Sequence record: OP172792
DNA from: Escherichia phage ECO340P2
Strand: one strand, 5' to 3'
Length of the DNA: 64,000 nucleotides
Part shown: one piece after another, positions 8,340-55,083 of the stretch
Layout: every line of letters begins with the position of its first letter
How positions within the stretch are numbered: the first letter of the stretch is position 1
The notes under the pieces: model-generated
What the model saw: only the letters and a program-made list of their open reading frames with translations
Databases searched by the model: none
Told to the model about the DNA's origin: nothing
Program-made: the position numbers and the translations under genes

Positions 8340-8469
8340 TAAATACTAATATTTAAATTCTTTTTAAAATAGCCAGTGTTCACACCACTAACTATGAGTT
8401 ATCGGTAAAGTGGTTACCGCCACTTGCCGAAGATTTACTCTGCTAAAGTAAGCTATATTAAAAAGAACT

Positions 8470-8555
8470 TGGCGGTAGATGTAGGACTCGAACCTACACG
8501 CCGTTTCCGACTACAGTTTAGCAAACTGTCGTGGCTACCATTTCACCAATCTACC
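8470..8555 (-). tRNA. tRNA-Ser (anticodon GCT), type II
   Basis: acceptor GGTAGAT/ATCTACC, G73, anticodon arm ACAGT-TTGCTAA-ACTGT, long variable arm, T-loop TTCGAGT. Confidence 0.85.
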
Positions 8556-8560
8556 TAATC

Positions 8561-8651
8561 TGGCGGAAGGAGGGAGAGTCGAACTCCCAAGGCTCTTTCA
8601 AGCTCGGCGGTTTTCAAGACCGTTTTCGTCGCCACGTCGATTTGCCCTTCC
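8561..8651 (-). tRNA. tRNA-Ser (anticodon TGA), type II
   Basis: acceptor GGAAGGG/TCCTTCC, G73, anticodon loop CTTGAAA, long variable arm, T-arm GGGAG/TTCGACT/CTCCC. Confidence 0.8.
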
Positions 8652-8660
8652 ATACTTATA

Positions 8661-8689
8661 ATCTAACATAAAATAATGTTAGTTGTCAA
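8661..8689 (-). promoter_or_regulatory. sigma70-like promoter (TTGACA-17-TTAGAT) upstream of the right tRNA sub-cluster
   Basis: reverse complement CTATTGACAA motif about 30 nt upstream of tRNA-Ser 5' end. Confidence 0.3.
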
Positions 8690-8884
8690 TAGTTTTTTAA
8701 AACATTTTACCATGAATGGTGACTCCACCAACCCCGTTCTCCACGAACGGTGCTCTTCGAGCATTTATGTCTTCTAATATAACCGTGGCCTTTGTTTATA
8801 ATGTCTGACATACTTGCCTCATTCTCTGCCACCATGATCAGTAGTGGGTTCAAATCACTTGAGCTAATTCATGTTAAAATGTTC

Positions 8885-8959
8885 TGGTGTCTTTACAAGG
8901 AATCGAACCTTGACTAAGAGTTTAGAAGACTCCTGTGCTATCCATTACACCATAAAGAC
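8885..8959 (-). tRNA. tRNA-Arg (anticodon TCT)
   Basis: acceptor GTCTTTA/TAAAGAC, anticodon arm GGAGT-CTTCTAA-ACTCT, T-arm CAAGG/TTCGATT/CCTTG, CCA. Confidence 0.85.
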
Positions 8960-8961
8960 GT

Positions 8962-9036
8962 TGGTGGCCCTGGCTGGTTTCGATCCAGCTACCTATCGGT
9001 TATGAGCCGACAGCTCTCCCATTGAGCTACAGGGCC
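8962..9036 (-). tRNA. tRNA-Met (anticodon CAT; second copy, possibly a different CAT isoacceptor)
   Basis: acceptor GGCCCTG/CAGGGCC, anticodon loop CTCATAA, T-arm GCTGG/ATCGAAA/CCAGC, CCA. Confidence 0.8.
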
Positions 9037-9282
9037 ATAAATGTGGTAACAGAGACGCTGACGATTGTAGAGAACCGCTACATTCTCTAAGACCAAGCCC
9101 AACTTTCAGCGTAAAAGTTCTTGAGCCGAGACTATTCCTTTTCCTCTTTGGTAGCTAACCTCTGAAGAAGTAGTCTCTAACACTACCGCAGTGCAAGCCC
9201 CTCTTAACAAAAGTCAACGACCCTGTTACCACACTTGATGAACGTATCCTAACATATGAAGGATACGTTTGTCAATAGTTAT

Positions 9283-9531
9283 TTAAGCATATTCTGCTAC
9301 TTCTTCACTATCTTTCTTTTCCAGAAGAGCAACAACCAAAGCTTCTGCGTTAAAAGTATTAATTTCAAGATCCATCTCTCGCATCAGAGCCAAGAAATCA
9401 ATAACTTTAACATCTTTAGTGATTACAATAGAAGTTGTACCATTGTTTTCAGATGTGTATTTTTCTGGATGGAAAAGAAAAACTGCATTGCCGTTACCAT
9501 CTTCAAACACGTGTTTTTCTAATAGAGACAT
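9283..9531 (-). CDS. hypothetical protein
   Basis: ATG preceded by AGGAGG; ORF-track N-terminal extension to 9597 lacks an RBS. Confidence 0.5.
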   Translation of the reverse strand: MSLLEKHVFEDGNGNAVFLFHPEKYTSENNGTTSIVITKDVKVIDFLALMREMDLEINTFNAEALVVALLEKKDSEEVAEYA

Positions 9532-9539
9532 TGTTCCTC

Positions 9540-9791
9540 CTAATCTGTTAGTTGTTCGTCCTCTACCAAGTTTGACACGAGAACGTCTGTTATACATTGA
9601 TGCTGATAAACCCTTTCGGGACTATCATCAAAAGCCAAACCTGTGCAAATAGAACAGAGGTCTGATTCCTTGATGACTCCATTTTTATCACGTCTGGAGT
9701 GGTTTGTCAAATGCCTATTACAAGCACGGCACCTAAAATAAAAGCTATTTTGCATATATCCTTCGAACCCCAAATGGGGAGTGATCGGCAT
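9540..9791 (-). CDS. hypothetical Cys-rich protein (zinc-finger-like CxxC pairs)
   Basis: 83 aa ORF with CRACN and CSIC motifs. Confidence 0.45.
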   Translation of the reverse strand: MPITPHLGFEGYMQNSFYFRCRACNRHLTNHSRRDKNGVIKESDLCSICTGLAFDDSPERVYQHQCITDVLVSNLVEDEQLTD

Positions 9792-9828
9792 CTCCTCACT
9801 TCTAGTTTAGCACGAAGGATATCTTAAG

Positions 9829-10014
9829 TCAACTAGGAATAATTTTATCCTTTTTGGTTTCATAACCAGTCCAATCTAAATCCTCCCAGCCTTCATCATC
9901 GTCTAACACATTGTCATCATCATAAGATGCAATGTTATAAATAGAACGTGGATTACAAGACATACAATCTTTAATAGGCACATGATGCCATTTGCACGGA
10001 TTCTCGCTAATCAT
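9829..10014 (-). CDS. hypothetical acidic small protein
   Basis: 61 aa ORF, last gene before the divergent AT-rich region. Confidence 0.45.
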   Translation of the reverse strand: MISENPCKWHHVPIKDCMSCNPRSIYNIASYDDDNVLDDDEGWEDLDWTGYETKKDKIIPS

Positions 10015-10495
10015 TACACACCTCCATTCTTGTTAAGATGTTCCGTACTGTACTTCATACTGATCTATAGATCAAGTATTATTTATAATAATTTATTATT
10101 TTATTTTTAATTGATAGAAGTTGATCTGTACGTACCAGTTCTGATACACTGTACCTGTTTGTTAGATCTAATAATTATTTATTATTAATATTTAATAATT
10201 ATTAATCTAGTACGGAGTACAGTACTTGAGTACAGAGTACTACATCAACAACCTAAAACCTTAACTCGCTGCGCTCGTTAATAGATTTCTAGGGTAGCAT
10301 ACTTCGAACACAAAAGTCAAGAGTTTTATTAAAAATTATTTTCTGTGTGCAAAAACCTTGCTTAAACAGGTAGCAATAGTATAGCCTATAACATAAGCTT
10401 CATAAGAGGCTCGTAGAGCAAGTTCACTTACTAGGTAAGGTGATTTATCATCTTATATATAAAAAGTGCGTCAGAGACGCGTTTAGGAGGTTAGA

Positions 10496-19321: not shown

Positions 19322-19350
19322 TTGACTTGCGGGATTAGTTATGATATTAT
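19322..19350 (+). promoter_or_regulatory. sigma70-like promoter (TTGACT-17-TATTAT)
   Basis: good consensus match; followed by hairpin CCTACCT..AGGTAGG + TTTTTA. Confidence 0.45.
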
Positions 19351-19389
19351 GCCTACCTACTTAATGAGGTAGGCTTTTTAGGAGGCGTT

Positions 19390-19599: not shown

Positions 19600-20040
19600 T
19601 TAGGGGGAAATATTAGCGGTTATATTTTAATTAAACCTGAAGATCTTCATTTATATGTCAACGAAGAAACAATAGCTGCAATTGATTATGATCAAATCGC
19701 TTTCCAAGCAGCGTCTGCATTAGAGAAAAGAACAATCATTGCGAAGCACATCCCTTCAGGTGCTCAAAAGGAATTTAAAAATAAGACAGAGTTTTGGGGT
19801 AAAAGCAAGACTAAAATTGGAGGTTGGCTAGGAGATACAAATGCAGAAAGAGCCTCCAAAAACAAACGTCCCTTCACAAAGGAAGAGTTCGAAATCATTG
19901 ATAAGCAATACCCGCCAGAAGATATCGGACACACCTTCCAAGCAGCTAAAACAAAAGTCTTAGGTATTCTAAAACATCTACGTTTAGAAAAATATTGCGG
20001 AGTTATTGGCGTAGGAAAAACTTTCAGACACGCCTTCAAA

Positions 20041-20730: not shown

Positions 20731-21686
20731 GCAGATTAACAGAAGAGCAGAAAGCAGATATCCTTAGTATGAGTGCAGAGGGTATGTCTTCTCGCAATAT
20801 TGCAGCAATTGTTTTAGGTAGTCCAACAAGAAAAAGCACAGTAAATGATTTCCTTGCACGTTTCGGTGCAAGTAAACAAGAGCCAGTTAAAAAGAAACAA
20901 CCAGTTATTAAAATTATTGATGTTGAAACTGCACCAGAGATTGCATATACTTTCCGTCGATTCAAAGCCTTCATTTCTCCAGACCAGGTAATTCGTAGGG
21001 GTTATTTGTTATCTTACTCTTCTGCTGATTTGTATACAGGTGAAGTAGAAGGTAAGAACTTATCTTCTTATCCTCTTTTCGATATCGATCATACAGATGA
21101 TTGGGAACTTTGCCAAGATCTTTGGAATCTTCTGAATGAAGCTGATGTTGTTGTGGCTCACAACGGATATAAGTTTGACCGTGCATACATTAACCAACGA
21201 TTTGCATATCACGATATGGCTCCTCCTTCTAATTATGTAGTTGTTGATACATTGAAGGCAGCTAAGAAGCAATTTGCACTTCCTTCCAACTCCCTTAAAG
21301 AAATGGGAGCATATTTCGAAACAGAAAGTGAAAAACTGGATAACGAGGGGTTCCCTTTATGGAAAGCATGTTGTGAAGGTGATCGTGATGCTTTTGAACG
21401 TATGCAGATTTACAATGATGGTGATGTTGTTTCACTCCGTGATTTGTATATGAAAATCCTTCCGTGGATTCCACAGCATCCTAACTTATCCGCTTATTAC
21501 CCAGATGAGAAGGTCCGTTGTTCTCGTTGTGGCAGTGATCACGTTCACGTTGTTACTGGTAAACAATACCACACTGCGGTAAGTTCTTTCGATATCATTC
21601 GTTGTGAATCTTGCGGAGGTTTGTCACGTAGTAGAGCAAACACCAGATCCAAGGATAAACGAGCAGCAACTATTATTGGAATCTAA
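20727..21686 (+). CDS. DEDD-type 3'-5' exonuclease-like protein with N-terminal HTH and C-terminal zinc ribbon
   Basis: IDVETA (Exo I-like), HNGYKFD (Exo II-like), sigma-like HTH at N-terminus, CSRCGS...CESCGG. Confidence 0.5.
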   Translation: MSRLTEEQKADILSMSAEGMSSRNIAAIVLGSPTRKSTVNDFLARFGASKQEPVKKKQPVIKIIDVETAPEIAYTFRRFKAFISPDQVIRRGYLLSYSSADLYTGEVEGKNLSSYPLFDIDHTDDWELCQDLWNLLNEADVVVAHNGYKFDRAYINQRFAYHDMAPPSNYVVVDTLKAAKKQFALPSNSLKEMGAYFETESEKLDNEGFPLWKACCEGDRDAFERMQIYNDGDVVSLRDLYMKILPWIPQHPNLSAYYPDEKVRCSRCGSDHVHVVTGKQYHTAVSSFDIIRCESCGGLSRSRANTRSKDKRAATIIGI

Positions 21687-21691: not shown

Positions 21692-21716
21692 AGGGAGCTT
21701 ATTGCTCCCTTTTTTA
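21692..21716 (+). terminator. rho-independent terminator
   Basis: GGGAGC-TTATT-GCTCCC hairpin followed by TTTTTTA. Confidence 0.55.
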
Positions 21717-21745
21717 TTGACAAAAATTTAATATTAGTGTATACT
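21717..21745 (+). promoter_or_regulatory. sigma70-like promoter (TTGACA-17-TATACT)
   Basis: directly abuts the terminator T-tract (TTTTTATTGACA). Confidence 0.45.
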
Positions 21746-21772: not shown

Positions 21773-22000
21773 ATGAGCATTACATTAACAGGTAACGAAA
21801 TTTTCGAACTGTTTGAAATGTTAGGTTTAAACTATACCATCGAGAAAGACCCAGATTTACTTGACGTTGAAATAACAATTCAAGAAGATACAGCAATCTA
21901 CAATGATGATGGTGATGTTATCTATCAAGGTAGGGTAGCTTATTATACAGATTACCCAGAAGAAGGCGCAGTAGGAATTCAGGAGGAAAATTATGTCTAA
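21773..22000 (+). CDS. hypothetical protein
   Basis: ATG after AAGGAGG; ORF-track start 21737 lacks an RBS. Confidence 0.5.
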   Translation: MSITLTGNEIFELFEMLGLNYTIEKDPDLLDVEITIQEDTAIYNDDGDVIYQGRVAYYTDYPEEGAVGIQEENYV

Positions 22001-24806: not shown

Positions 24807-24834
24807 TTGACTTTAGTATTAGTTTTAGTATAAT
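24807..24834 (+). promoter_or_regulatory. sigma70-like promoter (TTGACT-16-TATAAT)
   Basis: near-consensus boxes upstream of the 24889 gene; followed by GGGAGGA..TCCTCCC hairpin. Confidence 0.5.
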
Positions 24835-24888
24835 ATAGCACAATACTGGGAGGAGGTGAGTCCTCCCATTCAAAATGAAGGAGAAAAT

Positions 24889-29298: not shown

Positions 29299-29452
29299 AA
29301 AAGAGTATGTCCGAATTCCACGAGAATTAACAGATCACATTGCAGAAGCAATAGCTTTCGAAGCTAGATGTTGTGGAGGCATTGCTTACGATATTTATGA
29401 AGCAATTATTAAAGCTGCTCAAGAAGAGGAGGAGATGAAAAATGGGTATTGA
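29288..29452 (+). CDS. hypothetical small protein
   Basis: 54 aa; GGAGG upstream; bridges two annotated genes with overlapping stops. Confidence 0.35.
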   Translation: MESEKEYVRIPRELTDHIAEAIAFEARCCGGIAYDIYEAIIKAAQEEEEMKNGY

Positions 29453-29768
29453 TATCGAATGGCGTATGTTACAGGGTGCACCTTTTAATAAGTGGGAAGA
29501 GGTTGTAGGAGAAGATCCTAGAATTGAAGAAGAATTTGATGGAGATTTTAACTGGTTCTTACAAGAAGGTCTTGATTTAAGTCGTATCTCTCCTTTCTAC
29601 GATGCTGATGAGTCTTATTGCATATATGGTATTTATTTAGAAGGCGGAGAAGGAAGCGTAGCTGTAGATCTTGAGCAAGTAAATGAGAATGCAAAAGAAG
29701 CCTATGCAGAGCTACTTGAAAAATATAACATTAAAACGGAAACTATTATTTCTCAACACGTCTGGTAA
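29442..29768 (+). CDS. hypothetical acidic protein
   Basis: 108 aa ORF. Confidence 0.55.
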   Translation: MGIDIEWRMLQGAPFNKWEEVVGEDPRIEEEFDGDFNWFLQEGLDLSRISPFYDADESYCIYGIYLEGGEGSVAVDLEQVNENAKEAYAELLEKYNIKTETIISQHVW

Positions 29769-29777: not shown

Positions 29778-30344
29778 ATGAAAGTAGAAAAAACAAAAAT
29801 TGAAGGTGCGGTAATTATCAAACCAGACGTTTATAAAGATGATCGTGGTTTCTTTTTAGAAACATACAATGAACAAAAATACGAAGATATCATTGGTAAA
29901 CAAACTTTCGTTCAAGATAATATGTCTAAATCAAACTTCGGTGTTTTGCGAGGAATGCACTTTCAAACAAATAACCCGCAAGGTAAGCTTGTTCGTTGTG
30001 TAAGTGGAGAAGTATTGGATTTCGCTGTAGATTTACGTAAAGATAGTCCAACTTACGGTGCTTGGGACGGTGTTGTTCTTCGTGCACGACACCATACGCA
30101 GTTTTGGCTTCCCCCTGGTTTGGCACATGGTTTTATAGTTTTGAGTATGGACGCTATCTTTGAATACAAATGCACAACTCCATACGACCCTTCTAGCGAA
30201 CAAAGTTTACGTTGGGATGATCCTGACATAGGGATCGATTGGGGCTTCGATATGATTTTTGACGAAGGTTTTAAACCTATCTTATCAACAAAAGATGCAA
30301 TGGCTAAATCTTTTCAACAGTTGCGTAGTGAGGGTGTATGCTAA
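29778..30344 (+). CDS. rmlC: dTDP-4-dehydrorhamnose 3,5-epimerase (RmlC-like cupin)
   Basis: 188 aa; FxETY...GVLRGMHFQ block and size match RmlC/RfbC. Confidence 0.75.
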   Translation: MKVEKTKIEGAVIIKPDVYKDDRGFFLETYNEQKYEDIIGKQTFVQDNMSKSNFGVLRGMHFQTNNPQGKLVRCVSGEVLDFAVDLRKDSPTYGAWDGVVLRARHHTQFWLPPGLAHGFIVLSMDAIFEYKCTTPYDPSSEQSLRWDDPDIGIDWGFDMIFDEGFKPILSTKDAMAKSFQQLRSEGVC

Positions 30345-39822: not shown

Positions 39823-40095
39823 GTGGAGTCTGAAGGCGAACTGCTGATAAAAAAGAAAGTTAAAGAGATGGAACAAGCACAAAGAAAGTTTCGTAAAGAG
39901 ATTGAAGAACTTTGTGAACAATTTCAGGAACAAGCTTGGATTGGTGACTATGATAATGGAGAAACTTATTACCCTACCGGAACACCAGCCGCAGACCACT
40001 ATATTGACTTTATTTGTGAAGATTATGGTGTAGAGTTAGATGAAAATGGTTTAACCACAAGAGGTGTTTGGGTCTCTTCTTCATCAATGTGTTAG
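39823..40095 (+). CDS. small protein, WxSS..C C-terminal family member 3, GTG start
   Basis: ends GVWVSSSSMC; RBS AAGGAGAG. Confidence 0.5.
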   Translation: MESEGELLIKKKVKEMEQAQRKFRKEIEELCEQFQEQAWIGDYDNGETYYPTGTPAADHYIDFICEDYGVELDENGLTTRGVWVSSSSMC

Positions 40096-40104
40096 TAAAT
40101 AATA

Positions 40105-40126
40105 ACCCGCTTCGGCGGGTTTTTTA
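40105..40126 (+). terminator. rho-independent terminator
   Basis: ACCCGC-TTCG-GCGGGT hairpin followed by TTTTTTA. Confidence 0.6.
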
Positions 40127-40155
40127 TTGACAGAGATAGGGAAGCTTGATAAACT
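40127..40155 (+). promoter_or_regulatory. sigma70-like promoter (TTGACA-17-TAAACT)
   Basis: abuts terminator T-tract (TTTTTATTGACA), same arrangement as at 21717. Confidence 0.4.
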
Positions 40156-44582: not shown

Positions 44583-44813
44583 TTATTTGTGTAGTGCTCT
44601 CTCGTATAACTCAATAATCAATTCATCTTCTACTGTAATACGCGCCATTTGATCCGTCTTAAGGATTGTTGGTTGGTAGTGATGCATTTCACTATTGATA
44701 CTACAATCCCATTCATCATTACCTAAATACTCTCCTACGTGGACCTTAACCATAAACGGAAACGGGTTATCTACCAAAAATGCCATACAACCTTCTTCGA
44801 TTTTATTTAACAC
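44583..44813 (-). CDS. hypothetical protein
   Basis: 76 aa ORF; start codon at 44813 reads GTG (reverse complement); first gene of minus-strand block. Confidence 0.45.
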   Translation of the reverse strand: MLNKIEEGCMAFLVDNPFPFMVKVHVGEYLGNDEWDCSINSEMHHYQPTILKTDQMARITVEDELIIELYERALHK

Positions 44814-44837
44814 ACGACCTCCTATTGCTACAGATAT

Positions 44838-44861
44838 GAAAAAACCCGCCGAAGCGGGTTC
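44838..44861 (-). terminator. rho-independent terminator (leftward)
   Basis: reverse complement AACCCGC-TTCG-GCGGGTT followed by TTTTTT. Confidence 0.5.
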
Positions 44862-44904
44862 TATTGCTACGATAGGATTACTATCCTACAGTATTGTTTC
44901 TGTG

Positions 44905-45186
44905 TCAAGCCTTAGCGTAGAAAAACTTCTCATATTCAGCTTTTGTTACGATTGTGGGGCAATCTTTTGTTCCATATTCAATAACAGGGGCTTCTACCAT
45001 TCTGGTGTTGAATAAGCAATAAGTCCCACGCATGTAAATACCAAATTTTGTTTCTACGATGTATTCTTTACTTAAACTAGAGAACTTAATCTCACCATCG
45101 GAGTCTCTTATAGCAATAAGAGCATGTTCGGGCCAATCTTTTCCTTTTGCGCCTAAAGCATTATACAATTCTTGAACGAGTTCCAT
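44905..45186 (-). CDS. hypothetical protein
   Basis: 93 aa ORF. Confidence 0.5.
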   Translation of the reverse strand: MELVQELYNALGAKGKDWPEHALIAIRDSDGEIKFSSLSKEYIVETKFGIYMRGTYCLFNTRMVEAPVIEYGTKDCPTIVTKAEYEKFFYAKA

Positions 45187-45198
45187 GTGACCTCCTTA

Positions 45199-45399
45199 TT
45201 AAATAACAAATTTTTCTTCTTCTGGCTTATCGTAATCTGGAGAATAAACATGTGCGGGATTAAAACCTTTAAAACTTCCTCGACCTTTACGTGGACAATT
45301 GAATGTGCGAGCTTGATGATCCCCAAAAGATTTCCCACAATGCATACATTTAAAATCAGTGCGTTTAGTCATGCTATATCTCCTTTTAAAAGGCTGCAC
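45199..45399 (-). CDS. hypothetical zinc-ribbon protein
   Basis: 66 aa; CMHCG ... NCPRKG; RBS AAGGAGA. Confidence 0.5.
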   Translation of the reverse strand: MQPFKRRYSMTKRTDFKCMHCGKSFGDHQARTFNCPRKGRGSFKGFNPAHVYSPDYDKPEEEKFVI

Positions 45400-45424
45400 C
45401 TATTGAAGATGCAGCTTTGATAGA

Positions 45425-45526
45425 TTATTTAGATGAGTCTAAAATGTCTTTTACTTTTGCCGTGATAACGTCTTGGTATTTGTTAATGAGATAGCCTACA
45501 ACTACACCTGCGATAAATGAAACCAT
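45425..45526 (-). CDS. hypothetical small membrane protein (33 aa)
   Basis: GGAGAAATA then ATG directly after upstream stop; single hydrophobic helix. Confidence 0.3.
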   Translation of the reverse strand: MVSFIAGVVVGYLINKYQDVITAKVKDILDSSK

Positions 45527-45535
45527 TATTTCTCC

Positions 45536-46144
45536 TTACTTAAGTGGTGAGAGAACAATCTCTCGGTTTTTTAAGAACCAAAGCATGTCATCTTGATCAT
45601 AGTCTGATCCCTCTGTAGTCGAATTTTTGATAGAATCAAAAAACCAACGAGGTATACCAAAACAACTCCCAGATGACTGCACGTCTTTCTGCGACATTTT
45701 AAATGTGATTGGAAAATCACAATTCTCAATCTCTCGGATATCCGCTGAAGATAAGATTGTAACTTCAACCAGTTCGTCGTTAGATGTAGTATCGTTGTCT
45801 TCCTGAATAATGTCAAATGCTTTTTGCACATCTTTTGCATCCAATGTTAAGCCTGTGGCTTTCTGAAAAGCAGAAACAAAAATGAGAGCTTCTTCAGAAC
45901 AAGGGGCTTCCAGCAAATGCGCCATAATAGGTGACAAGCAGATGTTAAGATCTTCGTCATACCAACGAACAATCCACACAGGCGTTGATCCGTTTTGTTT
46001 GTCACGAGCCAAAATTGTAACGTGCTGACCTTCTTCTGGTATATGATACAAACCAGAAAAACCAGGACCTGTAATGGATTTTTTGACACGCACTACATGT
46101 CCCACTTCTAAAGGATCTTTACCATCCCAAATCTTCTCTTCCAT
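45536..46144 (-). CDS. hypothetical protein
   Basis: 202 aa ORF. Confidence 0.55.
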   Translation of the reverse strand: MEEKIWDGKDPLEVGHVVRVKKSITGPGFSGLYHIPEEGQHVTILARDKQNGSTPVWIVRWYDEDLNICLSPIMAHLLEAPCSEEALIFVSAFQKATGLTLDAKDVQKAFDIIQEDNDTTSNDELVEVTILSSADIREIENCDFPITFKMSQKDVQSSGSCFGIPRWFFDSIKNSTTEGSDYDQDDMLWFLKNREIVLSPLK

Positions 46145-46152
46145 ATAACCTC

Positions 46153-46416
46153 CTAAATAACATCTTTGAAATAGTGAATCACTTCAATGTTATGATACAA
46201 AGTGCTTCGCTCTTTTGTGTACTCTGTTTTAGTAACAAACACTTTTGCAATACCATACTTATGTGCAGGTAGGTTTGGATTGGTTTGCATAATCTCTTTC
46301 ACAACACTTATAGTTTCGTGCTCGGATTCCCAATAAGTGAAGTAACCCTCACTATCAACGATTAAAGACTCGTTTTCAAGATCTACAAAACAGAAAAATA
46401 TTGACGGATGGCTCAT
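46153..46416 (-). CDS. hypothetical protein
   Basis: 87 aa ORF. Confidence 0.5.
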   Translation of the reverse strand: MSHPSIFFCFVDLENESLIVDSEGYFTYWESEHETISVVKEIMQTNPNLPAHKYGIAKVFVTKTEYTKERSTLYHNIEVIHYFKDVI

Positions 46417-46580
46417 TCTTTTTCTTCAACCTTCCTCAAAGCTTTTTGATCGAATATGGCGTGTTGTAACTCCCCGTTTTCATCGAACCAAGTTACTTTA
46501 CAAGATTCACCATAACTTTCTATTACTGTCATTTGTTTGTTTGCACCTTTAAGACAAACCACATCACCTACTTGCATCAT
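46413..46580 (-). CDS. hypothetical small protein (55 aa)
   Basis: ATGA overlaps at both ends with neighbouring genes; missed by ORF track (below 60 aa). Confidence 0.4.
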   Translation of the reverse strand: MMQVGDVVCLKGANKQMTVIESYGESCKVTWFDENGELQHAIFDQKALRKVEEKE

Positions 46581-47026
46581 GATTGAGTTCCTTTTTGTTT
46601 TTCAATAGCTGCACGAATTTCTGCTAAAGGCTCTGCTACCAAATCTTCAACTTCTTGGATTTGTTCATTCATTACGTCACGAACCATTTGAATCCGCTCT
46701 TCAAGGGAAACAGCAAGTTCATCTGCATAAGCCATATTAAGAACGTGGTAGAAATTTTCTTGTGCACTTAGAGCACCAGATAACAAGTAATCCTGATCTT
46801 CCTCTGGTAAAAGCATGTGTTGCTCATATTCAGCAAAAGTGTTTTTGTTAATCTCAAGCAAAGCACCCATCATAACATCATACTGATAATCTTTATGATC
46901 GGGATTGTTTAAAACAACATCTTCAAAGATATTAAGAAGAATCTTAGTAACAAAAGCATTGTTTTCAGCACCTTCCATCTGACGGATTACCGTAATTACT
47001 TCTCTTTCTTTAGCGTTTTGGCTCAT
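46577..47026 (-). CDS. hypothetical protein
   Basis: 149 aa ORF. Confidence 0.55.
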   Translation of the reverse strand: MSQNAKEREVITVIRQMEGAENNAFVTKILLNIFEDVVLNNPDHKDYQYDVMMGALLEINKNTFAEYEQHMLLPEEDQDYLLSGALSAQENFYHVLNMAYADELAVSLEERIQMVRDVMNEQIQEVEDLVAEPLAEIRAAIEKQKGTQS

Positions 47027-47216
47027 AGTGTTTCTCCTCTGGCTCTATTTGGATGTAACCCGTGGTTTTGCACGGATTACACTCGTAAATTTGACCTACA
47101 TCCGCCATAACATAGCCTGCACCACCGCAGTAGGGGCAAGGCATAGGAGGACAAGGTATGGACGTAGTAATTGTTACAACATTGTCAATTGCCAACATTT
47201 TCGCCATTATTACCAC
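47010..47216 (-). CDS. hypothetical zinc-finger mini-protein (DnaJ-type CxxCxGxG repeats)
   Basis: 68 aa; CPYCGGAG and CNPCKTTG. Confidence 0.5.
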   Translation of the reverse strand: MVIMAKMLAIDNVVTITTSIPCPPMPCPYCGGAGYVMADVGQIYECNPCKTTGYIQIEPEEKHYEPKR

Positions 47217-47458
47217 TCCGCTATTAATGTTAGACCAAGTGCATCGTTAAAACGTTCAACATTCGAGTATAGGTATGGAGGGGTTATTTGCTCTAAAATT
47301 TGTGCTGCTTCCACTTGGTGTTCTATGTTTTGAGAAGTTCGGGCATAAACTAAGACACCCATTTTATTCAAAATAAAAACAGAATCAGACCCATCCAGCT
47401 TATCAACGGCTGCATACATTTTAGTCATGTTTTCTCCTAGATTACCATTCAGCAACAA
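47210..47458 (-). CDS. hypothetical protein
   Basis: 82 aa ORF. Confidence 0.5.
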   Translation of the reverse strand: MLLNGNLGENMTKMYAAVDKLDGSDSVFILNKMGVLVYARTSQNIEHQVEAAQILEQITPPYLYSNVERFNDALGLTLIAEW

Positions 47459-47657
47459 GATTAGGATTTATAGCAAAAGCTTTGAAAGTTGTTATGTCAT
47501 GACTAACATTAAAACTAACGCCTTTTACTTTCTCTAATATTTGAACTTTCGTCTCTCCGTCCCACGGTAGGATGATAACACCATCTCCTGTGATCAACCA
47601 CCAATGGTTCTCTCCATCTCGTGAATCTTTTGCTTTGTATAGAAAATTGGAACTCAT
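47442..47657 (-). CDS. hypothetical protein
   Basis: 71 aa ORF; RBS GGAGGA. Confidence 0.5.
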   Translation of the reverse strand: MSSNFLYKAKDSRDGENHWWLITGDGVIILPWDGETKVQILEKVKGVSFNVSHDITTFKAFAINPNLVAEW

Positions 47658-48017
47658 TTTTCCTCCTGTTCGGTATTATTCGCCTGTGAGACACAATGTA
47701 ACACAAGCCTTGTGAGTTTGTCAAGGATCTAATTACATTCTACAGAAGAAGGTGATTAATAACCATAGGAATAGTCTCACTATAGGTGTAAGATAAGGTA
47801 AGAGTTAGATTGATAGGTAAGACTTATCTTAAACAGATAATTGATAGGTAAACCAGCATTGACTTTTTCAAAAAAATATGGTACCCTAAACATATGTTTA
47901 CGAGCGATAGCGAGTAGTAGATTTCTATATAATAATGTTTCATGTTACTCACGATAGTGAGGTATGAAACGTAAGTGAAGGTAGATAAACTATGATCATC
48001 TATCTACCATCTATTAA

Positions 48018-48227
48018 TCAATATAGATCTAATGTTAGACTAACAGTTATCCAACAAACAATAGCAGTCCATATAACAAGTAATGATCTACAAACTACAT
48101 CCCATTCAAATACATTGTATGTTAACCATTCTCCCATCACAACAGAAGAACCCAACCAACATCCAACAACAACTATAATCCAATAAAAGAATCCTACAGT
48201 AGAGTATACAGCAAAAGCTTTTAACAT
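48018..48227 (-). CDS. hypothetical small membrane protein (two predicted TM helices)
   Basis: 69 aa, strongly hydrophobic; GGAGG upstream of ATG. Confidence 0.4.
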   Translation of the reverse strand: MLKAFAVYSTVGFFYWIIVVVGCWLGSSVVMGEWLTYNVFEWDVVCRSLLVIWTAIVCWITVSLTLDLY

Positions 48228-48640
48228 CTTTCCTCCAGAAGTTGTTCAACAGTTTGACGAGTATGATTGTCCCAGTAAACCTTAGTGAAGTCAAGAGTTC
48301 CTTGTTCGTTTCTCTTAGTTTCGAAGAAGTATCCGCCTTCTCTTTCTACTCTGTCTCTAATGTGCTCTATGAGGTGCTTTTTAGAAGATGCTGATAAACA
48401 GTAGTCATACTCCCCACGAAGTAACGCTATAGCTGCAAGCCTGTTATCACCAACTTGAGATATTGTCCAAGAAAGCATACTACCTTTTATACCTAAAGGT
48501 GTTTGTCGAATGGAATATCCACCATGCCGACTGATAGAAATTATGGCAAGTGGTTCTCCTGTTAGGGTTCTTCCTAATGCACCTTCTGTTGGACTTCCTT
48601 CGATAATACGTTTGAAAAAGGCTTTGATCTTACCTAACAT
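48221..48640 (-). CDS. hypothetical protein
   Basis: 139 aa ORF; RBS AAGGGGGA. Confidence 0.55.
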   Translation of the reverse strand: MLGKIKAFFKRIIEGSPTEGALGRTLTGEPLAIISISRHGGYSIRQTPLGIKGSMLSWTISQVGDNRLAAIALLRGEYDYCLSASSKKHLIEHIRDRVEREGGYFFETKRNEQGTLDFTKVYWDNHTRQTVEQLLEERC

Positions 48641-48657
48641 AAGTCCCCCTTAAAAAT

Positions 48658-48792
48658 TTACTTGTTTAAAGTATCTCTTACTTGTTCTGCTTGACGTTTA
48701 GTAATAAAAGTCCCAACCGAAACGTTAAACTCATTGACTACAGAGAACGATCCATCACGGTTCTCACGAATATTAAACAATTTCTTACTCAT
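48658..48792 (-). CDS. hypothetical small protein (44 aa)
   Basis: AAGGAGG RBS then ATG overlapping upstream stop; missed by ORF track. Confidence 0.4.
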   Translation of the reverse strand: MSKKLFNIRENRDGSFSVVNEFNVSVGTFITKRQAEQVRDTLNK

Positions 48793-48988
48793 TTCTACCT
48801 CCTTCAATGCTTTGTGCCGTACCATCCCAAGCCATTAGAATGTTTTCCAATAGTTCACGAGGCTCTTTAAACCAAACTTCCATTTCATCAAGGATCTCGT
48901 CCGTGTCGTAAGTATAACCTGGAACACCAAGTTCACATTTCTTAAGATAGCTTTCTAACCAGCGGTGATAATTCTTAACCCCATTCAT
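48785..48988 (-). CDS. hypothetical protein
   Basis: 67 aa ORF. Confidence 0.5.
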   Translation of the reverse strand: MNGVKNYHRWLESYLKKCELGVPGYTYDTDEILDEMEVWFKEPRELLENILMAWDGTAQSIEGGRNE

Positions 48989-49361
48989 ACTGTGCTACCT
49001 TTTCTTTTACCCAATCTACACGATCTTTATCATAATGTTGAGTGCCAAGGAAAAGACCATTGTGGAAACTTTCCTCACCGAAAGGATAAATTGGATCTAA
49101 ACCATCTTCTTCAAACAACATTTTTAATCGATTTGATGTAGATTTCTTAGTTTCTGAATTGTAGTTTGTGGTTATAAGCCAATCTTCCAAACAACGACAC
49201 AAACCTTGACGAGAATCCCAAGGAAAAACACAATCTCCGACAGGAGCTTGTTCAGCCCATTTCAACCAGCCTTTAAAAAAGTTATACAGTATGTAGTCTT
49301 CAGTGTAATACATTAGCGCCTCCTTTACATATACAATAACACCCCGCAGAACGGGGTGCAA
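48975..49361 (-). CDS. paralog family A member (FY..W..GLC..FPF..WV small protein)
   Basis: shares FFKGWL, GLCRCL, YPF and RVDWVKEKV blocks with six other ORFs in this block. Confidence 0.55.
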   Translation of the reverse strand: MHPVLRGVIVYVKEALMYYTEDYILYNFFKGWLKWAEQAPVGDCVFPWDSRQGLCRCLEDWLITTNYNSETKKSTSNRLKMLFEEDGLDPIYPFGEESFHNGLFLGTQHYDKDRVDWVKEKVAQYEWG

Positions 49362-49364
49362 CTA

Positions 49365-49976
49365 TTATTTAATCTGTTTAAAAATTTCGTTTGGAACGGT
49401 ACCGTTTAAAATACCTTCTACGATCTCTTGTGCAGATGTGTAAGAGAGTCCAAAAGAAGCTACGCCTAAAATTGCCTCCTTCAAAGGATCTGGCAGGGGT
49501 TCAAAATTACCTGCAACAAAGCCACCTGCACAAGCAGCGCCTTCATCATCCCAGAAAACAACTGCTACATCGTTACCATGCGAAGTTGTGCGATGTGCAA
49601 TAACTTCAACTTCTGTTCCTTCTTTAGGAACAGAATAAGAACTGTCCCAAGAATATCTTTCCAAATCAGGAACAAAGATAACCTTTTCACCTACTGGCGG
49701 CAGTTCACAACGATAATACCAAGAATTTTTTTCGTTCATTGTTTTATTTTCCTCCACGTCTTCAAAAGTAACGATCCAATCGTAGCCGTAAGAAAACGGA
49801 TATTTTAGATCTAAAGAATAAGTTTGACCTAGATCGTCCTCAACAAGAACCATCCTGTCAAAGTTTGCGATGTTAGGATTATGTTTAATGATAGGGTATG
49901 TTTCCCCTACAGTAAATTGCCCCAAATGGTAAAGGTCATCTCTCCAAGTAATTTGGATATGAGTGCATTGAATCAT
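49365..49976 (-). CDS. hypothetical protein
   Basis: 203 aa ORF. Confidence 0.55.
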   Translation of the reverse strand: MIQCTHIQITWRDDLYHLGQFTVGETYPIIKHNPNIANFDRMVLVEDDLGQTYSLDLKYPFSYGYDWIVTFEDVEENKTMNEKNSWYYRCELPPVGEKVIFVPDLERYSWDSSYSVPKEGTEVEVIAHRTTSHGNDVAVVFWDDEGAACAGGFVAGNFEPLPDPLKEAILGVASFGLSYTSAQEIVEGILNGTVPNEIFKQIK

Positions 49977-49980
49977 AAAA

Positions 49981-50253
49981 TCACCCCCAAGAAATATTTA
50001 TATATCTTACAATGTTTGCACTGTCTAAAGCCATGTTTGCACCACACCCACGCTCGCGCCAGTAACTAACAATACCTTCACAGATACTCTCTTGTATCTT
50101 CTTATCACTTGGCATTTCTAGTATAAGACTTGGGTTGTGGATGTTTATGTTATAATATCCTTCCTCTGCGGCTTGAGCTACCAATTTACTTACTTTTTCA
50201 AAGTACGGGGAATTAGTGGCATCTGCCATTGTTTTTAAGGTTTGTCTATCCAT
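49981..50253 (-). CDS. hypothetical protein
   Basis: 90 aa ORF. Confidence 0.5.
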   Translation of the reverse strand: MDRQTLKTMADATNSPYFEKVSKLVAQAAEEGYYNINIHNPSLILEMPSDKKIQESICEGIVSYWRERGCGANMALDSANIVRYINISWG

Positions 50254-50618
50254 TATTCTGCCTCATCATAGAAGAAATCCAACTCTTGTTCCAGTTGTTT
50301 AACTTGATCCTTAACCCACTGTACACGTTTTTCATTAAACATGCAACGTTTTTCCTTACACTCTTGCTCAAAAGATTTTGCTGTGTTAAATGGGAAAGTT
50401 GTATCTAAGCCAGCGTTTTCAAAACTGGCTAATTGCATACCATAAACAGAATATGCTAAAGAATGCTCTGCCCGAAATTCATCACTTATATACATACGCA
50501 GACCTCGGCATAAGCCAACATCAGCGTAACCACTTTCTCTTGGAAAGAGACGGAGGTGTTCTAACCAATTATTATAGAAATCTAAAAGAATCCTCTTACA
50601 CTTCAAATCGATTGTCAT
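50253..50618 (-). CDS. paralog family A member
   Basis: LDFYNNWL, GLCRGL, FPF, RVQWVKDQV; ATG after GAAGGAG (ORF-track start 50708 overlaps upstream gene). Confidence 0.5.
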   Translation of the reverse strand: MTIDLKCKRILLDFYNNWLEHLRLFPRESGYADVGLCRGLRMYISDEFRAEHSLAYSVYGMQLASFENAGLDTTFPFNTAKSFEQECKEKRCMFNEKRVQWVKDQVKQLEQELDFFYDEAE

Positions 50619-51018
50619 AAAAAGTTTCTCCTTCATCAAACAAGTTGGCAAGATTGTTAACGGCAATCTGGGTGGAAAGAAGACAACTGTTTGCAGACAC
50701 ATAAGCACGAGCTATTTTGTAAACATAAACTTTCGTATTACAATTGTCTAGGATCGGAAGACTTTCGTCGATAGCATCTATAACACTAAACATCACATCT
50801 AAAACTTTAATGGTGAGTGTTGTATTTGTATCTTCGTAACCTTTTTCAATCAGACCTGAATAGAAGGTATAGTCCTCAACAGTTCGTCGTTTAAATTGGC
50901 GCATAAAATCGGAACCATCTGTAGCAGAATTGAACAAATTTTCAAAAAATACGTCCCATCCTGCAAAAAGGGCTGACAGCATGATTAAGTGATCTACAGA
51001 TTCATTTTCTTGTTTCAT
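50596..51018 (-). CDS. hypothetical protein
   Basis: 140 aa ORF. Confidence 0.5.
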   Translation of the reverse strand: MKQENESVDHLIMLSALFAGWDVFFENLFNSATDGSDFMRQFKRRTVEDYTFYSGLIEKGYEDTNTTLTIKVLDVMFSVIDAIDESLPILDNCNTKVYVYKIARAYVSANSCLLSTQIAVNNLANLFDEGETFYDNRFEV

Positions 51019-51026
51019 ATCCTCTC

Positions 51027-51704
51027 CTATTTAATGTTAAGTCTGGCACACAAACGAGAAACAGTTTTAGCATCCCATTTACCACCACGTGCTGTTGCTA
51101 TTTTCTTACTATTGAATTTTTCAGCAATAGTTTTGTAAGGTGTATTTAAATCTCTAAGGATCTCCAAACGTTCACGGAATGTCTCTGCAAAAGCGTCTGC
51201 TTTAACAGAGTTGTATTCCATTTTTCCTTTTCTACGTGCAGCGGCAGTTTTAGGATTAGCACTACCTAATAAAACACCTTTGCTTTTTGCTACAGCAAGA
51301 CCCTTTTTAATACGATCAGCAATACCTCTAACTTCTTGTTCAGCCAGAACAGACAGAAGCTGTATAACCATTTTATCTGCGTCTGGCATAATGGCTATCT
51401 TAACATCGATCATTTCTAGAAGAGTTGCTACGGAGGCGTTGTTACGACCCAAGCGGTCAACTTTAGCTACCAATAAAGTTGCTCCGGTAGCTTTACACAT
51501 TTCAACCGCTTTGACCAGTTCCTTACGTTGCTTCCAATCGCCCTTACCCGAATAGTATTCAGAAAATTGACCAATAACTTCAGCATCAGGCACAGAGTCT
51601 AAGAAGTAACGGATATCGTTCTCTTGGCTCTCCATACCATATTGTGCCTCACCTTTTTTCTGTTTAGAAAGACGACTGTAAACAACAAACTTTTTCATAA
51701 CCAC
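51027..51704 (-). CDS. serine recombinase (resolvase/invertase family)
   Basis: 225 aa; N-terminal YSRLSK catalytic-serine region, VDRLGRN block, C-terminal HTH-like region. Confidence 0.7.
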   Translation of the reverse strand: MVMKKFVVYSRLSKQKKGEAQYGMESQENDIRYFLDSVPDAEVIGQFSEYYSGKGDWKQRKELVKAVEMCKATGATLLVAKVDRLGRNNASVATLLEMIDVKIAIMPDADKMVIQLLSVLAEQEVRGIADRIKKGLAVAKSKGVLLGSANPKTAAARRKGKMEYNSVKADAFAETFRERLEILRDLNTPYKTIAEKFNSKKIATARGGKWDAKTVSRLCARLNIK

Positions 51705-51727
51705 TCCTAAACTATTGCTGTATTCTC

Positions 51728-51756
51728 ACTTTACAAAACGAATAAACACTTGTCAA
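51728..51756 (-). promoter_or_regulatory. sigma70-like promoter (TTGACA-17-TAAAGT) upstream of the recombinase gene
   Basis: reverse complement of the intergenic region gives both boxes with 17 nt spacing. Confidence 0.4.
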
Positions 51757-51768
51757 GGTATTTATTAT

Positions 51769-51981
51769 TTACAGCCATTCTACTCTTAAGCAGTATTCCT
51801 CGACATGTTGTTTACGCTTGTTTTTGTCTATGTAAGTGTATTCAACAAATGTCCCAAGATAGTCCTTGTCTACATTGTGTGGGCTATTGATTGGACATTT
51901 AGTACGACAAACCCGTTGCCACTGACGAAGAATTACGGCTTTGTTTTTAGGATCAAAGGGATGAGGGTAATGTGCCTTCAT
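51769..51981 (-). CDS. hypothetical protein
   Basis: 70 aa ORF. Confidence 0.5.
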   Translation of the reverse strand: MKAHYPHPFDPKNKAVILRQWQRVCRTKCPINSPHNVDKDYLGTFVEYTYIDKNKRKQHVEEYCLRVEWL

Positions 51982-52305
51982 TCACGACTCCTGTTTTAGT
52001 CGAAAAATATTTTGAATAACGAGAGATGTATAATTATCACTTAGTTCCATAAGTTCTACTTCCAAGTTTCGAATATCTTCCACTGTAGGAGGATATGTTG
52101 GTAAAAATGCTTGAGCGTTACCAGACCCCACCTCATTGCTGTAAGCAGTTGTAAAATTGTAAGATACAAAACATGAAACACCTTTTTGTCGGTACCCGAT
52201 TAATCGACGAATACACCAGATAAGAGCCAAACCTATGAGGACACCTCCTAAACCAGCTAACAAGAAGGATAAGTTCATAATAGCTTCGTTAACAACTGCT
52301 TGCAT
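51982..52305 (-). CDS. hypothetical membrane protein
   Basis: 107 aa; N-terminal hydrophobic helix LSFLLAGLGGVLIGLALIW. Confidence 0.5.
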   Translation of the reverse strand: MQAVVNEAIMNLSFLLAGLGGVLIGLALIWCIRRLIGYRQKGVSCFVSYNFTTAYSNEVGSGNAQAFLPTYPPTVEDIRNLEVELMELSDNYTSLVIQNIFRLKQES

Positions 52306-52315
52306 TCTTTTCTCC

Positions 52316-52615
52316 TTAGTTATGTAAACCCAAATGTGCTACAACTTCTCTACGATAAGATAACTGCATAGCGATTTTATAGCCAGGATGAAAACCATTT
52401 ACATCAATGTCATCAAACCAAACCTCAAATGAACCGTGTTTAAGAGTCATTAAGTTAATATACCATTCAATAGTATAATGATCGTCAGCAATACCTTCGA
52501 TGTAAAACTCTCGGCAACAGTGAGATAAATCTTCACTTGTTTCACGTTTCCAATCCTTAATAGCCCCTTTCTCTTTGGCTTGATTCAAAATTTTGATCAG
52601 GTCTTCAACTTGCAT
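52316..52615 (-). CDS. hypothetical protein
   Basis: 99 aa ORF; RBS AAGGAGA. Confidence 0.5.
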   Translation of the reverse strand: MQVEDLIKILNQAKEKGAIKDWKRETSEDLSHCCREFYIEGIADDHYTIEWYINLMTLKHGSFEVWFDDIDVNGFHPGYKIAMQLSYRREVVAHLGLHN

Positions 52616-52643
52616 ATCTATCTCCTTTGTGGTTAATCTTTAT

Positions 52644-52672
52644 ATTTTAAATATTGTACCGTCTTCTGTCAA
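52644..52672 (-). promoter_or_regulatory. sigma70-like promoter (TTGACA-17-TAAAAT)
   Basis: -35 overlaps the stop codon of the upstream gene; drives the 52316-52615 gene. Confidence 0.4.
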
Positions 52673-53082
52673 ATAGCCTCTTTCTCTAAAACAACCCTTT
52701 GGATCACAACATCTTCAATGTTTGCCAAACAATGACCCAAAGTCAATCCTGCCTTGAAAGGTGCTTGTAGTTTGGATTCAGCTTCTACGCGAACAGAATG
52801 TTCCGCTCCGCACATGGTGTAATCTACACGGTAAACGTTTAAACCTAAGAACATAGATTCTTCTTCCTCACAACAAGGATTGAGTTCAGCCCAGTCCCAA
52901 GCATCTCCTTCTAAAGCAAATGGAGTATTGTAATTGAAGAAAGTGCAGCGCGGATATTCCCCGTTGAAAGAATCTTTCAGCAGAATATATTTCTTACCGT
53001 TTGCATGGAAGAGTTCTCCTTTGATAACTTTACCTACAAGGATATCACTGTTAGTGGAACGGGTGCAAATAAACTTTTTCAT
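52669..53082 (-). CDS. hypothetical protein
   Basis: 137 aa ORF; RBS GAGAGGAGAA. Confidence 0.55.
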   Translation of the reverse strand: MKKFICTRSTNSDILVGKVIKGELFHANGKKYILLKDSFNGEYPRCTFFNYNTPFALEGDAWDWAELNPCCEEEESMFLGLNVYRVDYTMCGAEHSVRVEAESKLQAPFKAGLTLGHCLANIEDVVIQRVVLEKEAI

Positions 53083-53111
53083 GATTTTCTCCTCTCTGTT
53101 TCGATGAGATG

Positions 53112-53140
53112 ATTATGACAAAGACAGATCCTTCTGTCAA
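53112..53140 (-). promoter_or_regulatory. sigma70-like promoter (TTGACA-17-CATAAT)
   Basis: -35 overlaps stop codon of upstream gene, same arrangement as at 52644. Confidence 0.4.
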
Positions 53141-53463: not shown

Positions 53464-53666
53464 TCTCCTTCGTGATAGTAAACCTCAAAAGAATAGTAAG
53501 TGAACATGCTCATTGTAACACCTGCCATTTCTGGATCAAAGGGGGTGTTGTTATACATGTCAACTACTGCCTGACCCGCTGCTTTGGCATGTGCTGCTGA
53601 ATCACAGGCACAAACATCTTTCTCCCACGGAAACTTACCATCATACTTAAGACGGACAATCCACAT
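53454..53666 (-). CDS. hypothetical protein
   Basis: 70 aa ORF. Confidence 0.5.
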   Translation of the reverse strand: MWIVRLKYDGKFPWEKDVCACDSAAHAKAAGQAVVDMYNNTPFDPEMAGVTMSMFTYYSFEVYYHEGEWK

Positions 53667-53668
53667 GC

Positions 53669-55082: not shown

Positions 55083-55083
55083 A

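Follow-up and report, generated by a model that had tools for sequence, protein, structure and literature searches.

At positions 21692–21745 of a 64,000-nucleotide stretch of the Escherichia phage ECO340P2 genome (record OP172792; this whole stretch is called the window below), the T-tract of a putative terminator runs directly into the -35 element of a putative promoter. A second junction of this kind lies near position 40127. A sequence-only reading of the window had assigned both sites, together with seven minus-strand promoters, to a uniform class of strong host-polymerase promoters with tightly coupled termination and re-initiation. Does the contact between terminator and promoter mark a special kind of element, or have two ordinary elements come to lie side by side? 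By megablast, the window belongs to the genus Phapecoctavirus (phAPEC8-like E. coli myophages of the Stephanstirmvirinae, ~150 kb). Phage ECO340P1 is 99.9% identical to it over 20–30 kb, and many other phages are 98–99% identical. Gene names were transferred from the annotation of ECO340P1 and Mt1B1_P17. The genes form three blocks. The first, on the minus strand (1–10,015), carries the prohead protease, portal, large terminase and spanin genes and 10–11 tRNAs; the second, on the plus strand (10,496–44,513), carries the DNA metabolism genes; the third, again on the minus strand (44,583–63,416), consists of small genes of unknown function. An Rfam scan of the window found tRNAs and no other RNA family.

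At the first site, the stop codon of a DnaQ-like exonuclease gene (21684–21686) is followed on the plus strand by a predicted intrinsic terminator (21692–21715) with stem arms at 21692–21698 and 21704–21710 and a T-tract at 21710–21715. Folding against shuffled controls gave -13.1 kcal/mol (z -3.8) for the hairpin 21692–21710, and ARNold had already annotated this terminator in phage Schickermooser (MK373788). A single A separates the T6 tract from TTGACA (21717–21722), which is followed after 17 nt by TATACT (21740–21745). This predicted sigma-70-type promoter (21717–21745, plus strand) matches the consensus at 11 of 12 positions. Its -10 box ends 28 nt 5' of the ATG of a 75-aa ORF (g75, 21773–22000), which overlaps g133 at 21993–22000, with no terminator between the two. 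At the second site, a 90-aa gene (39823–40095) is followed by a predicted intrinsic terminator on the plus strand (40104–40125) that consists of a CCCGC-UUCG-GCGGG tetraloop hairpin (40104–40121; -11.8 kcal/mol, well below shuffled controls) and a T6 tract (40120–40125). Here too, a single A stands before TTGACA (40127–40132), and 17 nt further on lies TAAACT (40150–40155). The resulting sigma-70-type promoter candidate (40127–40155, plus strand) has a TGn extended -10 and precedes a 313-aa DUF7275/DUF7277 gene at 40186. The geometry described earlier, in which the T-tract runs straight into TTGACA with a 17-nt spacer and a TAnnnT box, was exact at both sites. The sequence TTTTTATTGACA occurs twice in the window, while dinucleotide shuffles predict 0.06 occurrences. 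Such abutment of T-tract and -35 element is found in only 2 of about 17 promoters.

It is possible to regard all promoter-like sites as chance matches to an AT-rich consensus that have no function. Loose scans of the window are consistent with this: a loose consensus scan found 57 sites against 54.3 expected, bare TTGACA was found 69 times against 59.6, and TATTGACA alone 8 times against 4.1 (7 of 100 shuffles reach 8), so none of them is enriched. With the strict pattern TTGACA-N16-18-TAnnnT and 300 dinucleotide shuffles as a control, the result was different. We found 18 matches against 3.96±1.9 expected, which is a 4.5-fold enrichment, and 0 of 300 shuffles reached 18. Sequence that is intergenic and co-oriented with genes makes up 4.7% of the search space but contains ten of these 18 matches (binomial P=1.6e-9). 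In total, 15 of 18 are co-oriented and three are antisense; five lie inside coding 3' ends. Thus, the enrichment is visible only in the strict two-box pattern and in the location of the sites. The hexamers are also conserved across genera, next to the portal gene as well as at the second junction (see below). Given the strict enrichment and this conservation, we rejected the chance explanation, which is hardly credible.

All gaps between genes were read along the transcribed strand and the sites tabulated, which gave about 17 credible promoters. Among the 17 aligned intergenic sites, 16 match the consensus at 9–11 of 12 positions, and the 6520 site matches at 8 of 12. A TGn extended -10 is present in about 10 of the 17. 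From the end of the -10 box, it is in most cases 28–40 nt to a start codon or 12 nt to a tRNA. The seven minus-strand coordinates given by the earlier reading turned out to be the -10 ends of TTGACA-N17/18 promoters; the box is TAnnnT in six of them and CATAAT at 53112.

In the first block, all candidates are on the minus strand. Between the portal and the XkdF-like prohead protease genes lies CTATTGACAA-N17-TAGACT (1812–1840). Between the large terminase and portal genes lies TTGACA-N17-TATTAT (3504–3532; 11 of 12), with the stop codon TAA 3 nt upstream of its -35 element and, 3' of the promoter, a leader hairpin that has no T-tract (3465–3495; -18.2 kcal/mol, z -4.9). For the portal and prohead-protease genes, which are late genes, consensus sigma-70 promoters are unexpected. 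Three candidates lie in the tRNA region: AAAACTATTGACAA-N18-TATAGT (7692–7721), whose -10 box ends 12 nt 5' of tRNA-Gly; AAAAACTATTGACAA-N18-TAGATT with TGn (8660–8689), within the tRNA cluster; and ATAACTATTGACAA-N18-TAGGAT with TGn (9246–9275), at the head of this cluster. Further upstream, TTGACT-N17-TAAACT with TGn (9804–9832) carries the TGA stop of the gene 9829–10014 inside its -35 element. On the plus strand, TATTGACT-N16-TATAAT (11 of 12) is followed by a leader hairpin without a T-tract at 24847–24868 (the whole element spans 24807–24868). The conserved leader hairpin of the early region (TAGGGCGG...), seen elsewhere in the genome, is absent from the window.

The candidates of the third block are again on the minus strand. 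A 360-bp non-coding region ends with TTGACA-N18-TACATT with TGn (47695–47724), and TTGACA-N17-TAAAGT (51728–51756) is located 30 nt upstream of a serine-recombinase gene. In TTGACA-N17-TAAAAT (52644–52672; 11 of 12), the TGA stop of the gene 52669–53082 lies inside the -35 element, and the same is true of TTGACA-N17-CATAAT with TGn (53112–53140) and the stop of the gene 53137–53463. The ORF ends thus confirm the earlier observation that two -35 boxes cover the stop codon of the upstream gene, and a TGA inside the -35 element is also found at 9832 (in TTGACT) and at 44908. One more promoter-like site, TTGACA-N16-TATACA with TGn (54492–54519), is located 32 nt upstream of the ORF 54188–54460 (minus strand). 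This ORF carries no annotation in ECO340P1. The promoter-like sites 42825 and 44908 were dropped as firm promoters: each has a complete terminator within its own predicted leader, so that one of the two elements, promoter or terminator, may be inactive there.

The earlier reading also ascribed the extended -35 form CTATTGACAA to the minus-strand promoters in common. We found it exactly at 1840, 7721 and 8689 and, in addition, at 9275, which had not been listed. At 3532, 51756, 52672 and 53140 the form is not shared, and the bases upstream differ (TTGTTGACAA, ACCTTGACAA, CTATTTGACAG and TTGGTTGACAG, respectively). In an information profile of the 17 promoters, the two positions 5' of the -35 element carry 0.17 and 0.32 bit, compared with 0.9–2.4 bit in the hexamer. 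Apart from the two hexamers and the TG, no position is informative, and the flanks show 31% pairwise identity against 26% for random sequence; this does not fit a uniform class. The tRNA cluster of phage phi92 has AAAAACTAnTTGACAA-type promoters, and the counterpart of the 8689 promoter there reads aaaaactacTTGACAag...tatgtTAGATT. In this cluster, the A-rich segment stands one base further from TTGACAA (AAAAACTAC/G-TTGACAA). Thus, TATTGACA as such is not constrained. The information profile and the comparison with phi92 rule out both TATTGACA and CTATTGACAA as a class-wide extended -35 element. We read CTATTGACAA as an A-rich upstream segment (AAAACTA) joined to TTGACAA, a combination found in one local promoter subgroup.

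This subgroup (1840, 7721, 8689 and 9275) could nevertheless be a separate class helped by a phage-encoded factor, which would explain the consensus-like promoters 5' of tRNA and head genes. The exact 10-mer occurs four times against 0.24 expected, all within 8 kb. AAAACTA...TTGACAA and ...TATGTTAG are found repeatedly in both the window and phi92, and the entire intergenic region of the 1840 promoter, spacer included, is nearly invariant across genera. However, the invariance at 1840 is explained by an overlapping hairpin, and the one-base displacement in phi92 (AAAAACTAnTTGACA) leaves TATTGACA unconstrained. Moreover, the motif matches the -35 consensus of sigma-70 perfectly, and no such factor was found. 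We therefore consider a factor-dependent class very unlikely. The signal is confined to the hexamers and the TG, with flanks near random, so that the sites appear to be a normal population of sigma-70-type promoters and not a uniform extended class.

Some of these promoters are paired with terminators. Stable GC-rich hairpins with an immediate U-tract were found 3' of stop codons. These hairpins have energies of -11.8 to -17 kcal/mol (z -2.6 to -4.1), and a T-tract follows each of them. The geometry of the pairs varies. The gap between terminator and -35 element is 1 nt at 21717 and 40127. It is 11 nt at 6520, where a hairpin with a T-tract (6539–6560) precedes the weaker promoter TTGCAA-N18-TAAGAT with TGn (6491–6560 in all, minus strand). 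At 6956 the gap is 19 nt, between a hairpin with T5 (6980–6998) and TTGACT-N17-TAAGAT with TGn (6928–6998 in all, minus strand). At 1840, a long hairpin of 12+4 bp followed by U5 (1788–1830, minus strand; -13.7 kcal/mol) encloses the -10 box; its counterpart in the relative L038 has -18.3 kcal/mol. This hairpin looks like a terminator for read-through RNA, with the predicted start site in its 3' arm. At 19322, on the plus strand, the promoter TTGACT-N17-TATTAT with TGn is followed directly after the -10 box by a hairpin with T5 (19351–19374; the whole element spans 19322–19374), which is already annotated as a terminator in Schickermooser. Here the predicted start site falls in the 5' stem arm. 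With the predicted start site within the stem, as at 1840 and 19322, transcripts begun at the module's own promoter would not contain the complete 5' arm and would escape termination. Solitary terminator-like hairpins also stand before an RBS at 27808, 32104, 34128, 35553, 42854 and 44197.

We believe, with a probability of roughly 0.8, that these sites are promoters for the host E. coli RNA polymerase with sigma-70, many of them paired with hairpin and U-tract terminators. Most likely, each terminator–promoter pair is a boundary between transcription units, as its anatomy and conservation suggest. Transcription arriving from the gene upstream would be stopped or attenuated by the hairpin, and the level of expression of the next gene would be set anew by the promoter. 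At the junctions, the terminator tail TTTTTTATTG would supply the TTG of TTGACA, which calls for no distinct mechanism. Of the earlier proposal of strong host-polymerase promoters, the sigma-70 type is borne out by the hexamers, the spacing, the co-orientation with genes and the conservation of the hexamers, and several promoters do have a hairpin and a T-tract upstream. The uniformity and the tight coupling are not borne out.

We compared both junctions with their counterparts in relatives. At the second site, the homologous 313-aa protein is 70–78% identical in L013–L016. In these four genomes the CCCGC-UUCG-GCGGG hairpin is identical and has the same position, and a similar hairpin is present in L017–L019. 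The promoter is kept in L013, L014 and L016 as TTGACA with a TAAACT or TAGACT box. These three genomes have TTTTTTATTG, then 11 nt, then TTGACA, and the window has TTTTTTATTGACA; the difference is a clean 11-nt alignment gap. The more distant L017–L019 have only the hairpin. At the first site, every relative has a hairpin 3' of the exonuclease gene at the same position, and the stem sequences differ. Four stem types (GGGAGC, GGGGC-TTCG, CCCGC-TTCG and GGGGC-GAAA) all still pair, so the structure is kept while the sequence has changed, as is expected of a terminator. In L005–L007 the promoter follows 10–12 nt past the T-tract and is accompanied by one or two accessory ORFs. In phi92-like genomes the hairpin is followed by an RBS, without promoter or extra ORF. 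The promoter at this site is confined to lineages that carry accessory ORFs there.

Other promoters were compared as well. In six relatives from other genera, whose portal proteins are 80–89% identical, the intergenic region of the 1840 promoter has hardly changed. At 3532, other genera also keep the -35 element CTTGACAAAA together with a -10 box, and in place of the leader hairpin 3465–3495 relatives carry a hairpin of different sequence. Both hexamers of the 53140 promoter are conserved in L044; the 52672 promoter is missing there, where the 3' end of the gene differs. In Mt1B1_P17 and ECO340P1 the hexamers are kept where local identity falls to 93%. Conservation of the hexamers during drift of the spacer and flanks points to promoters of the sigma-70 type. 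Relatives are spaced at the second site or lack the promoter at the first, which indicates that the direct contact of T-tract and -35 element is a derived compaction of a spaced pair and is not required. The hairpin appears to be the more stable partner. Tight coupling as a design principle does not agree with this: only two sites abut, and in relatives the elements are 10–12 nt apart or the hairpin stands without a promoter.

It could still be that the abutment itself is functional, either because polymerase released at the terminator is recaptured at the -35 element or because the T-tract acts as an UP-like booster. The T6 tract covers roughly -42 to -37, the region of the proximal UP subsite, and the fused form is present in all close relatives inspected (L004, L011, Mt1B1_P17 and ECO340P1). 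Sliding and re-initiation of E. coli RNA polymerase after termination have been documented in vitro (PMC6978380, PMC10372574). However, sliding covers hundreds of base pairs, which makes abutment unnecessary, and the upstream segment of the other promoters is A-rich, not T-rich. Only 2 of about 17 promoters are fused, the spacing in relatives is 10–12 nt, and phi92-like genomes have no promoter at the first site. A functional role of the abutment is therefore improbable, and derived compaction remains the preferred explanation of the junctions.

The second hairpin is of a widespread type. The 22-mer terminator CGCTTCGGCGGGTTTTTTATTG is present in at least 120 unrelated IMG/VR viral contigs, in most cases with an RBS and ATG behind it. 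A -35 element is built on its ATTG tail in 2 of 120 among the matches listed, which shows how easily such a fusion can arise. The hairpin with TTTTTTATTG is thus a generic terminator, which speaks against its interpretation as a lineage-specific mobile cassette. Terminators of the window share with canonical E. coli UUCG terminators the GC stem of 5–7 bp, the UUCG or GAAA tetraloop and the U6 tract. They differ in what follows: an RBS and start codon in most contigs, and a fused -35 element only in the 2 of 120 just mentioned. The first site also resembles the morons of lambdoid phages, which are promoter–gene–terminator units, in that its promoter accompanies accessory ORFs inserted between conserved genes. 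However, its terminator is that of the conserved gene upstream and is retained where the insert is missing; the inserted ORF, which is oriented as its neighbours are, has no terminator behind it. We rejected the first site as a moron: the terminator precedes the promoter, and g75 and g133 have none between them.

Among known elements, the PeSL (promoter-early stem-loop) cassette of the T4-like phages RB49/phi1, PST and nt-1 comes closest (Arbiol et al. 2010, PMC2839356; Comeau et al. 2014, PMC4122927). In it, a strong sigma-70-like promoter is combined with an AT-rich segment and a stem-loop; five subclasses are distinguished by position, and activity both as promoter and as terminator has been demonstrated (PMC2839356, PMC4122927). 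Like PeSLs, the pairs in the window are intergenic composites of a large virulent myophage, in which a sigma-70-like promoter preceded by AT-rich sequence is combined with a GC stem-loop, presumably a terminator or attenuator, located upstream of the -35 element, overlapping the -10 box or just downstream. In both cases, stop codons lie in or beside the module and an RBS is close behind. The 30 nt upstream of the -35 element are 68% A+T, compared with 62% in the whole window, and in make-up the pairs agree with a PeSL. They do not agree in sequence homology: about 100 bp are common to PeSL copies, which are clustered in hyperplastic regions, whereas those of the window have nothing but the hexamers and the TG in common, with 31% identity upstream and 31% downstream against 26% for random sequence in the 17 promoters. 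The lineages also differ, T4-like in one case and Stephanstirmvirinae in the other. Thus, the likeness appears to be one of composition and does not extend to homology of whole cassettes.

The modules could nonetheless be mobile cassettes of the PeSL type, that is, homologous patches that insert, delete or swap accessory genes besides regulating them. They fall in several PeSL positional subclasses (PMC2839356), and the promoter of the first site is present or absent together with the accessory ORFs (g75, ORF142/152) that can separate the exonuclease gene from g133. The module of L006 at the first site and that of L016 at the second are nearly identical over about 40 nt, and about 17 homologous promoter and hairpin copies are present in the ORFan-rich early region of ECO340P1, outside the window. 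On the other hand, the UUCG-tetraloop terminator is generic (at least 120 unrelated contigs), so the similarity between modules may be convergent, and beyond the hexamers and the TG the copies in the window have no sequence in common. Association of modules with indels is present at the first site and absent at the rmlA/rmlB indel relative to tuntematon (near 29770), which is flanked by no module. We regard a cassette role as unlikely. Equally doubtful is a broader scheme for the Stephanstirmvirinae, in which composite modules would act as selective insulators that stop read-through while their own RNA lacks the hairpin, would recapture polymerase at an abutting -35 element beginning 2 nt downstream, and would promote PeSL-like gene shuffling. 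Ordinary sigma-70 promoters beside ordinary terminators are our preferred reading here as well.

A similar use of host-type promoters has been described for phage rV5, where 33 sigma-70-like promoters, 11 of them with an extended -10, and 20 terminators were found genome-wide (Kropinski et al. 2013, PMC3606486). Neither a phage RNA polymerase nor a late sigma factor of the T4 type was recognised in rV5, and its authors suggested that the host polymerase may serve throughout (PMC3606486). As in the window, TTGACA-N15-20-TATAAT elements occur over the whole genome of rV5, late regions included, and many have an extended -10. In contrast to the window, rV5 belongs to a different subfamily, and the paper lists the sites without an analysis of terminator–promoter geometry. 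Predicted promoters and terminators are also given in routine annotations of Phapecoctavirus genomes (PMC10612097, PMC10698182). In the searched literature we found no transcript mapping for Phapecoctavirus or Stephanstirmvirinae, so we infer initiation, termination efficiency and timing from the DNA.

Thus, the kind of element at 21692–21745 is already known, the window is a further instance of it, and the contact of terminator and promoter is an incidental 11-base compaction. The analysis provides a checked map of promoters and terminators for 64 kb of a genus used in phage-therapy cocktails and flags annotation errors beside promoters. The junctions are possible compact, insulated and probably strong promoter and terminator parts for E. 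coli. The fused and spaced forms of the module in sister genera are a natural experiment on the distance between terminator and promoter. Consensus sigma-70 promoters at the portal and protease genes raise the question of how late timing is achieved in a virulent phage of 150 kb.

Five of the 18 strict matches to the pattern TTGACA-N16-18-TAnnnT in the window lie on the plus strand within the 3' ends of coding regions (17193, 31007, 33341, 38680 and 42825). They fall in the final 30–220 nt of these regions and are co-oriented with the genes, and the next start codon is found 57–172 nt downstream. These matches may be internal promoters.

The minus-strand sigma-70-type promoters are named here by the start of the -35 element. 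The 51756 promoter lies 30 nt upstream of a gene at 51027-51698 (-), whose product was identified as a serine recombinase (Pfam Resolvase N-terminal domain, 5e-18; PHROG DNA invertase). The presence of a serine recombinase in a strictly virulent myophage is unexpected. At 54188-54460 (-), there is a 90-aa open reading frame that is not annotated in the related phage ECO340P1. A promoter-like site (54519) and a ribosome-binding site lie about 32 nt upstream, and therefore this reading frame is probably a real gene.

In the tRNA cluster, a tRNA-like sequence with CCA at its end was found at 8560-8652 (-), directly downstream of the 8689 promoter; it was called neither by ARAGORN nor by Rfam at the gathering score. 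An 11th tRNA, at 8255-8339 (-), was detected by Rfam and missed by ARAGORN. About 210 nt extending from the 9275 promoter to the first tRNA-Met (9037-9245, minus strand) are untranslated. The segment has no match in Rfam and could represent a leader or a small RNA.

Three longer non-coding regions contain repeats. Between the gene blocks that diverge to the left and to the right lie 481 bp (10015-10495), which are strongly AT-rich and carry palindromes together with repeated ATTATT/TAATAA runs. This stretch is a candidate for a control region or an origin. In the 360-bp non-coding region at 47658-48017 (-), a CTTACCTATCAAT-like motif is repeated upstream of the 47724 promoter, and these repeats could be binding sites of a regulator. 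At 63417-64000 (-), at least 584 bp are devoid of open reading frames, and this region, in which ATTCTCAT-type motifs are repeated, continues past the end of the window.

The reading frame of the exonuclease gene, annotated as starting at 20041, is open for a further 147 codons immediately before this position (19600-20040, plus strand). These codons begin immediately after the stop codon of the preceding gene and contain no ATG, GTG or TTG. The homologous gp085 of phage phi92 has a longer annotation, marked 'No RBS identified'. It is probable that the exonuclease gene has been annotated too short and uses a non-canonical start codon. The gene at 1296-1775 (-) has hits to both the XkdF-type phage serine protease (PF14550, 1.4e-11) and PHROGs of head maturation proteases. 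The Mt1B1_P17 homologue in RefSeq is annotated as 'DNA methyltransferase', probably in error. In many Phapecoctavirus genomes, the homologues of 29442-29768 and 29778-30344 flank the genes of dTDP-glucose 4,6-dehydratase and glucose-1-phosphate thymidylyltransferase. Near 29770 the window lacks both genes, in contrast to phage tuntematon (retrieved locus L045, 9773-11652).

The sequence-only reading placed a uniform promoter class in the window. It turned out that a far more uniform promoter module is located outside it, in about 17 copies within positions 1-9000 of ECO340P1 (OP172791.1, retrieved locus L036); we found no copies of this module in the window. Each copy has TTGACA and TAAnnT separated by 16 nt, together with an A-rich segment and the conserved leader hairpin GTAGGGCGG...CCGCC, and one copy precedes nearly every small early gene of the region. 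In this genome, the early module is the real 'uniform promoter class', and it looks closer to PeSL, the promoter-early stem-loop cassette of T4-like phages, than any element of the window.
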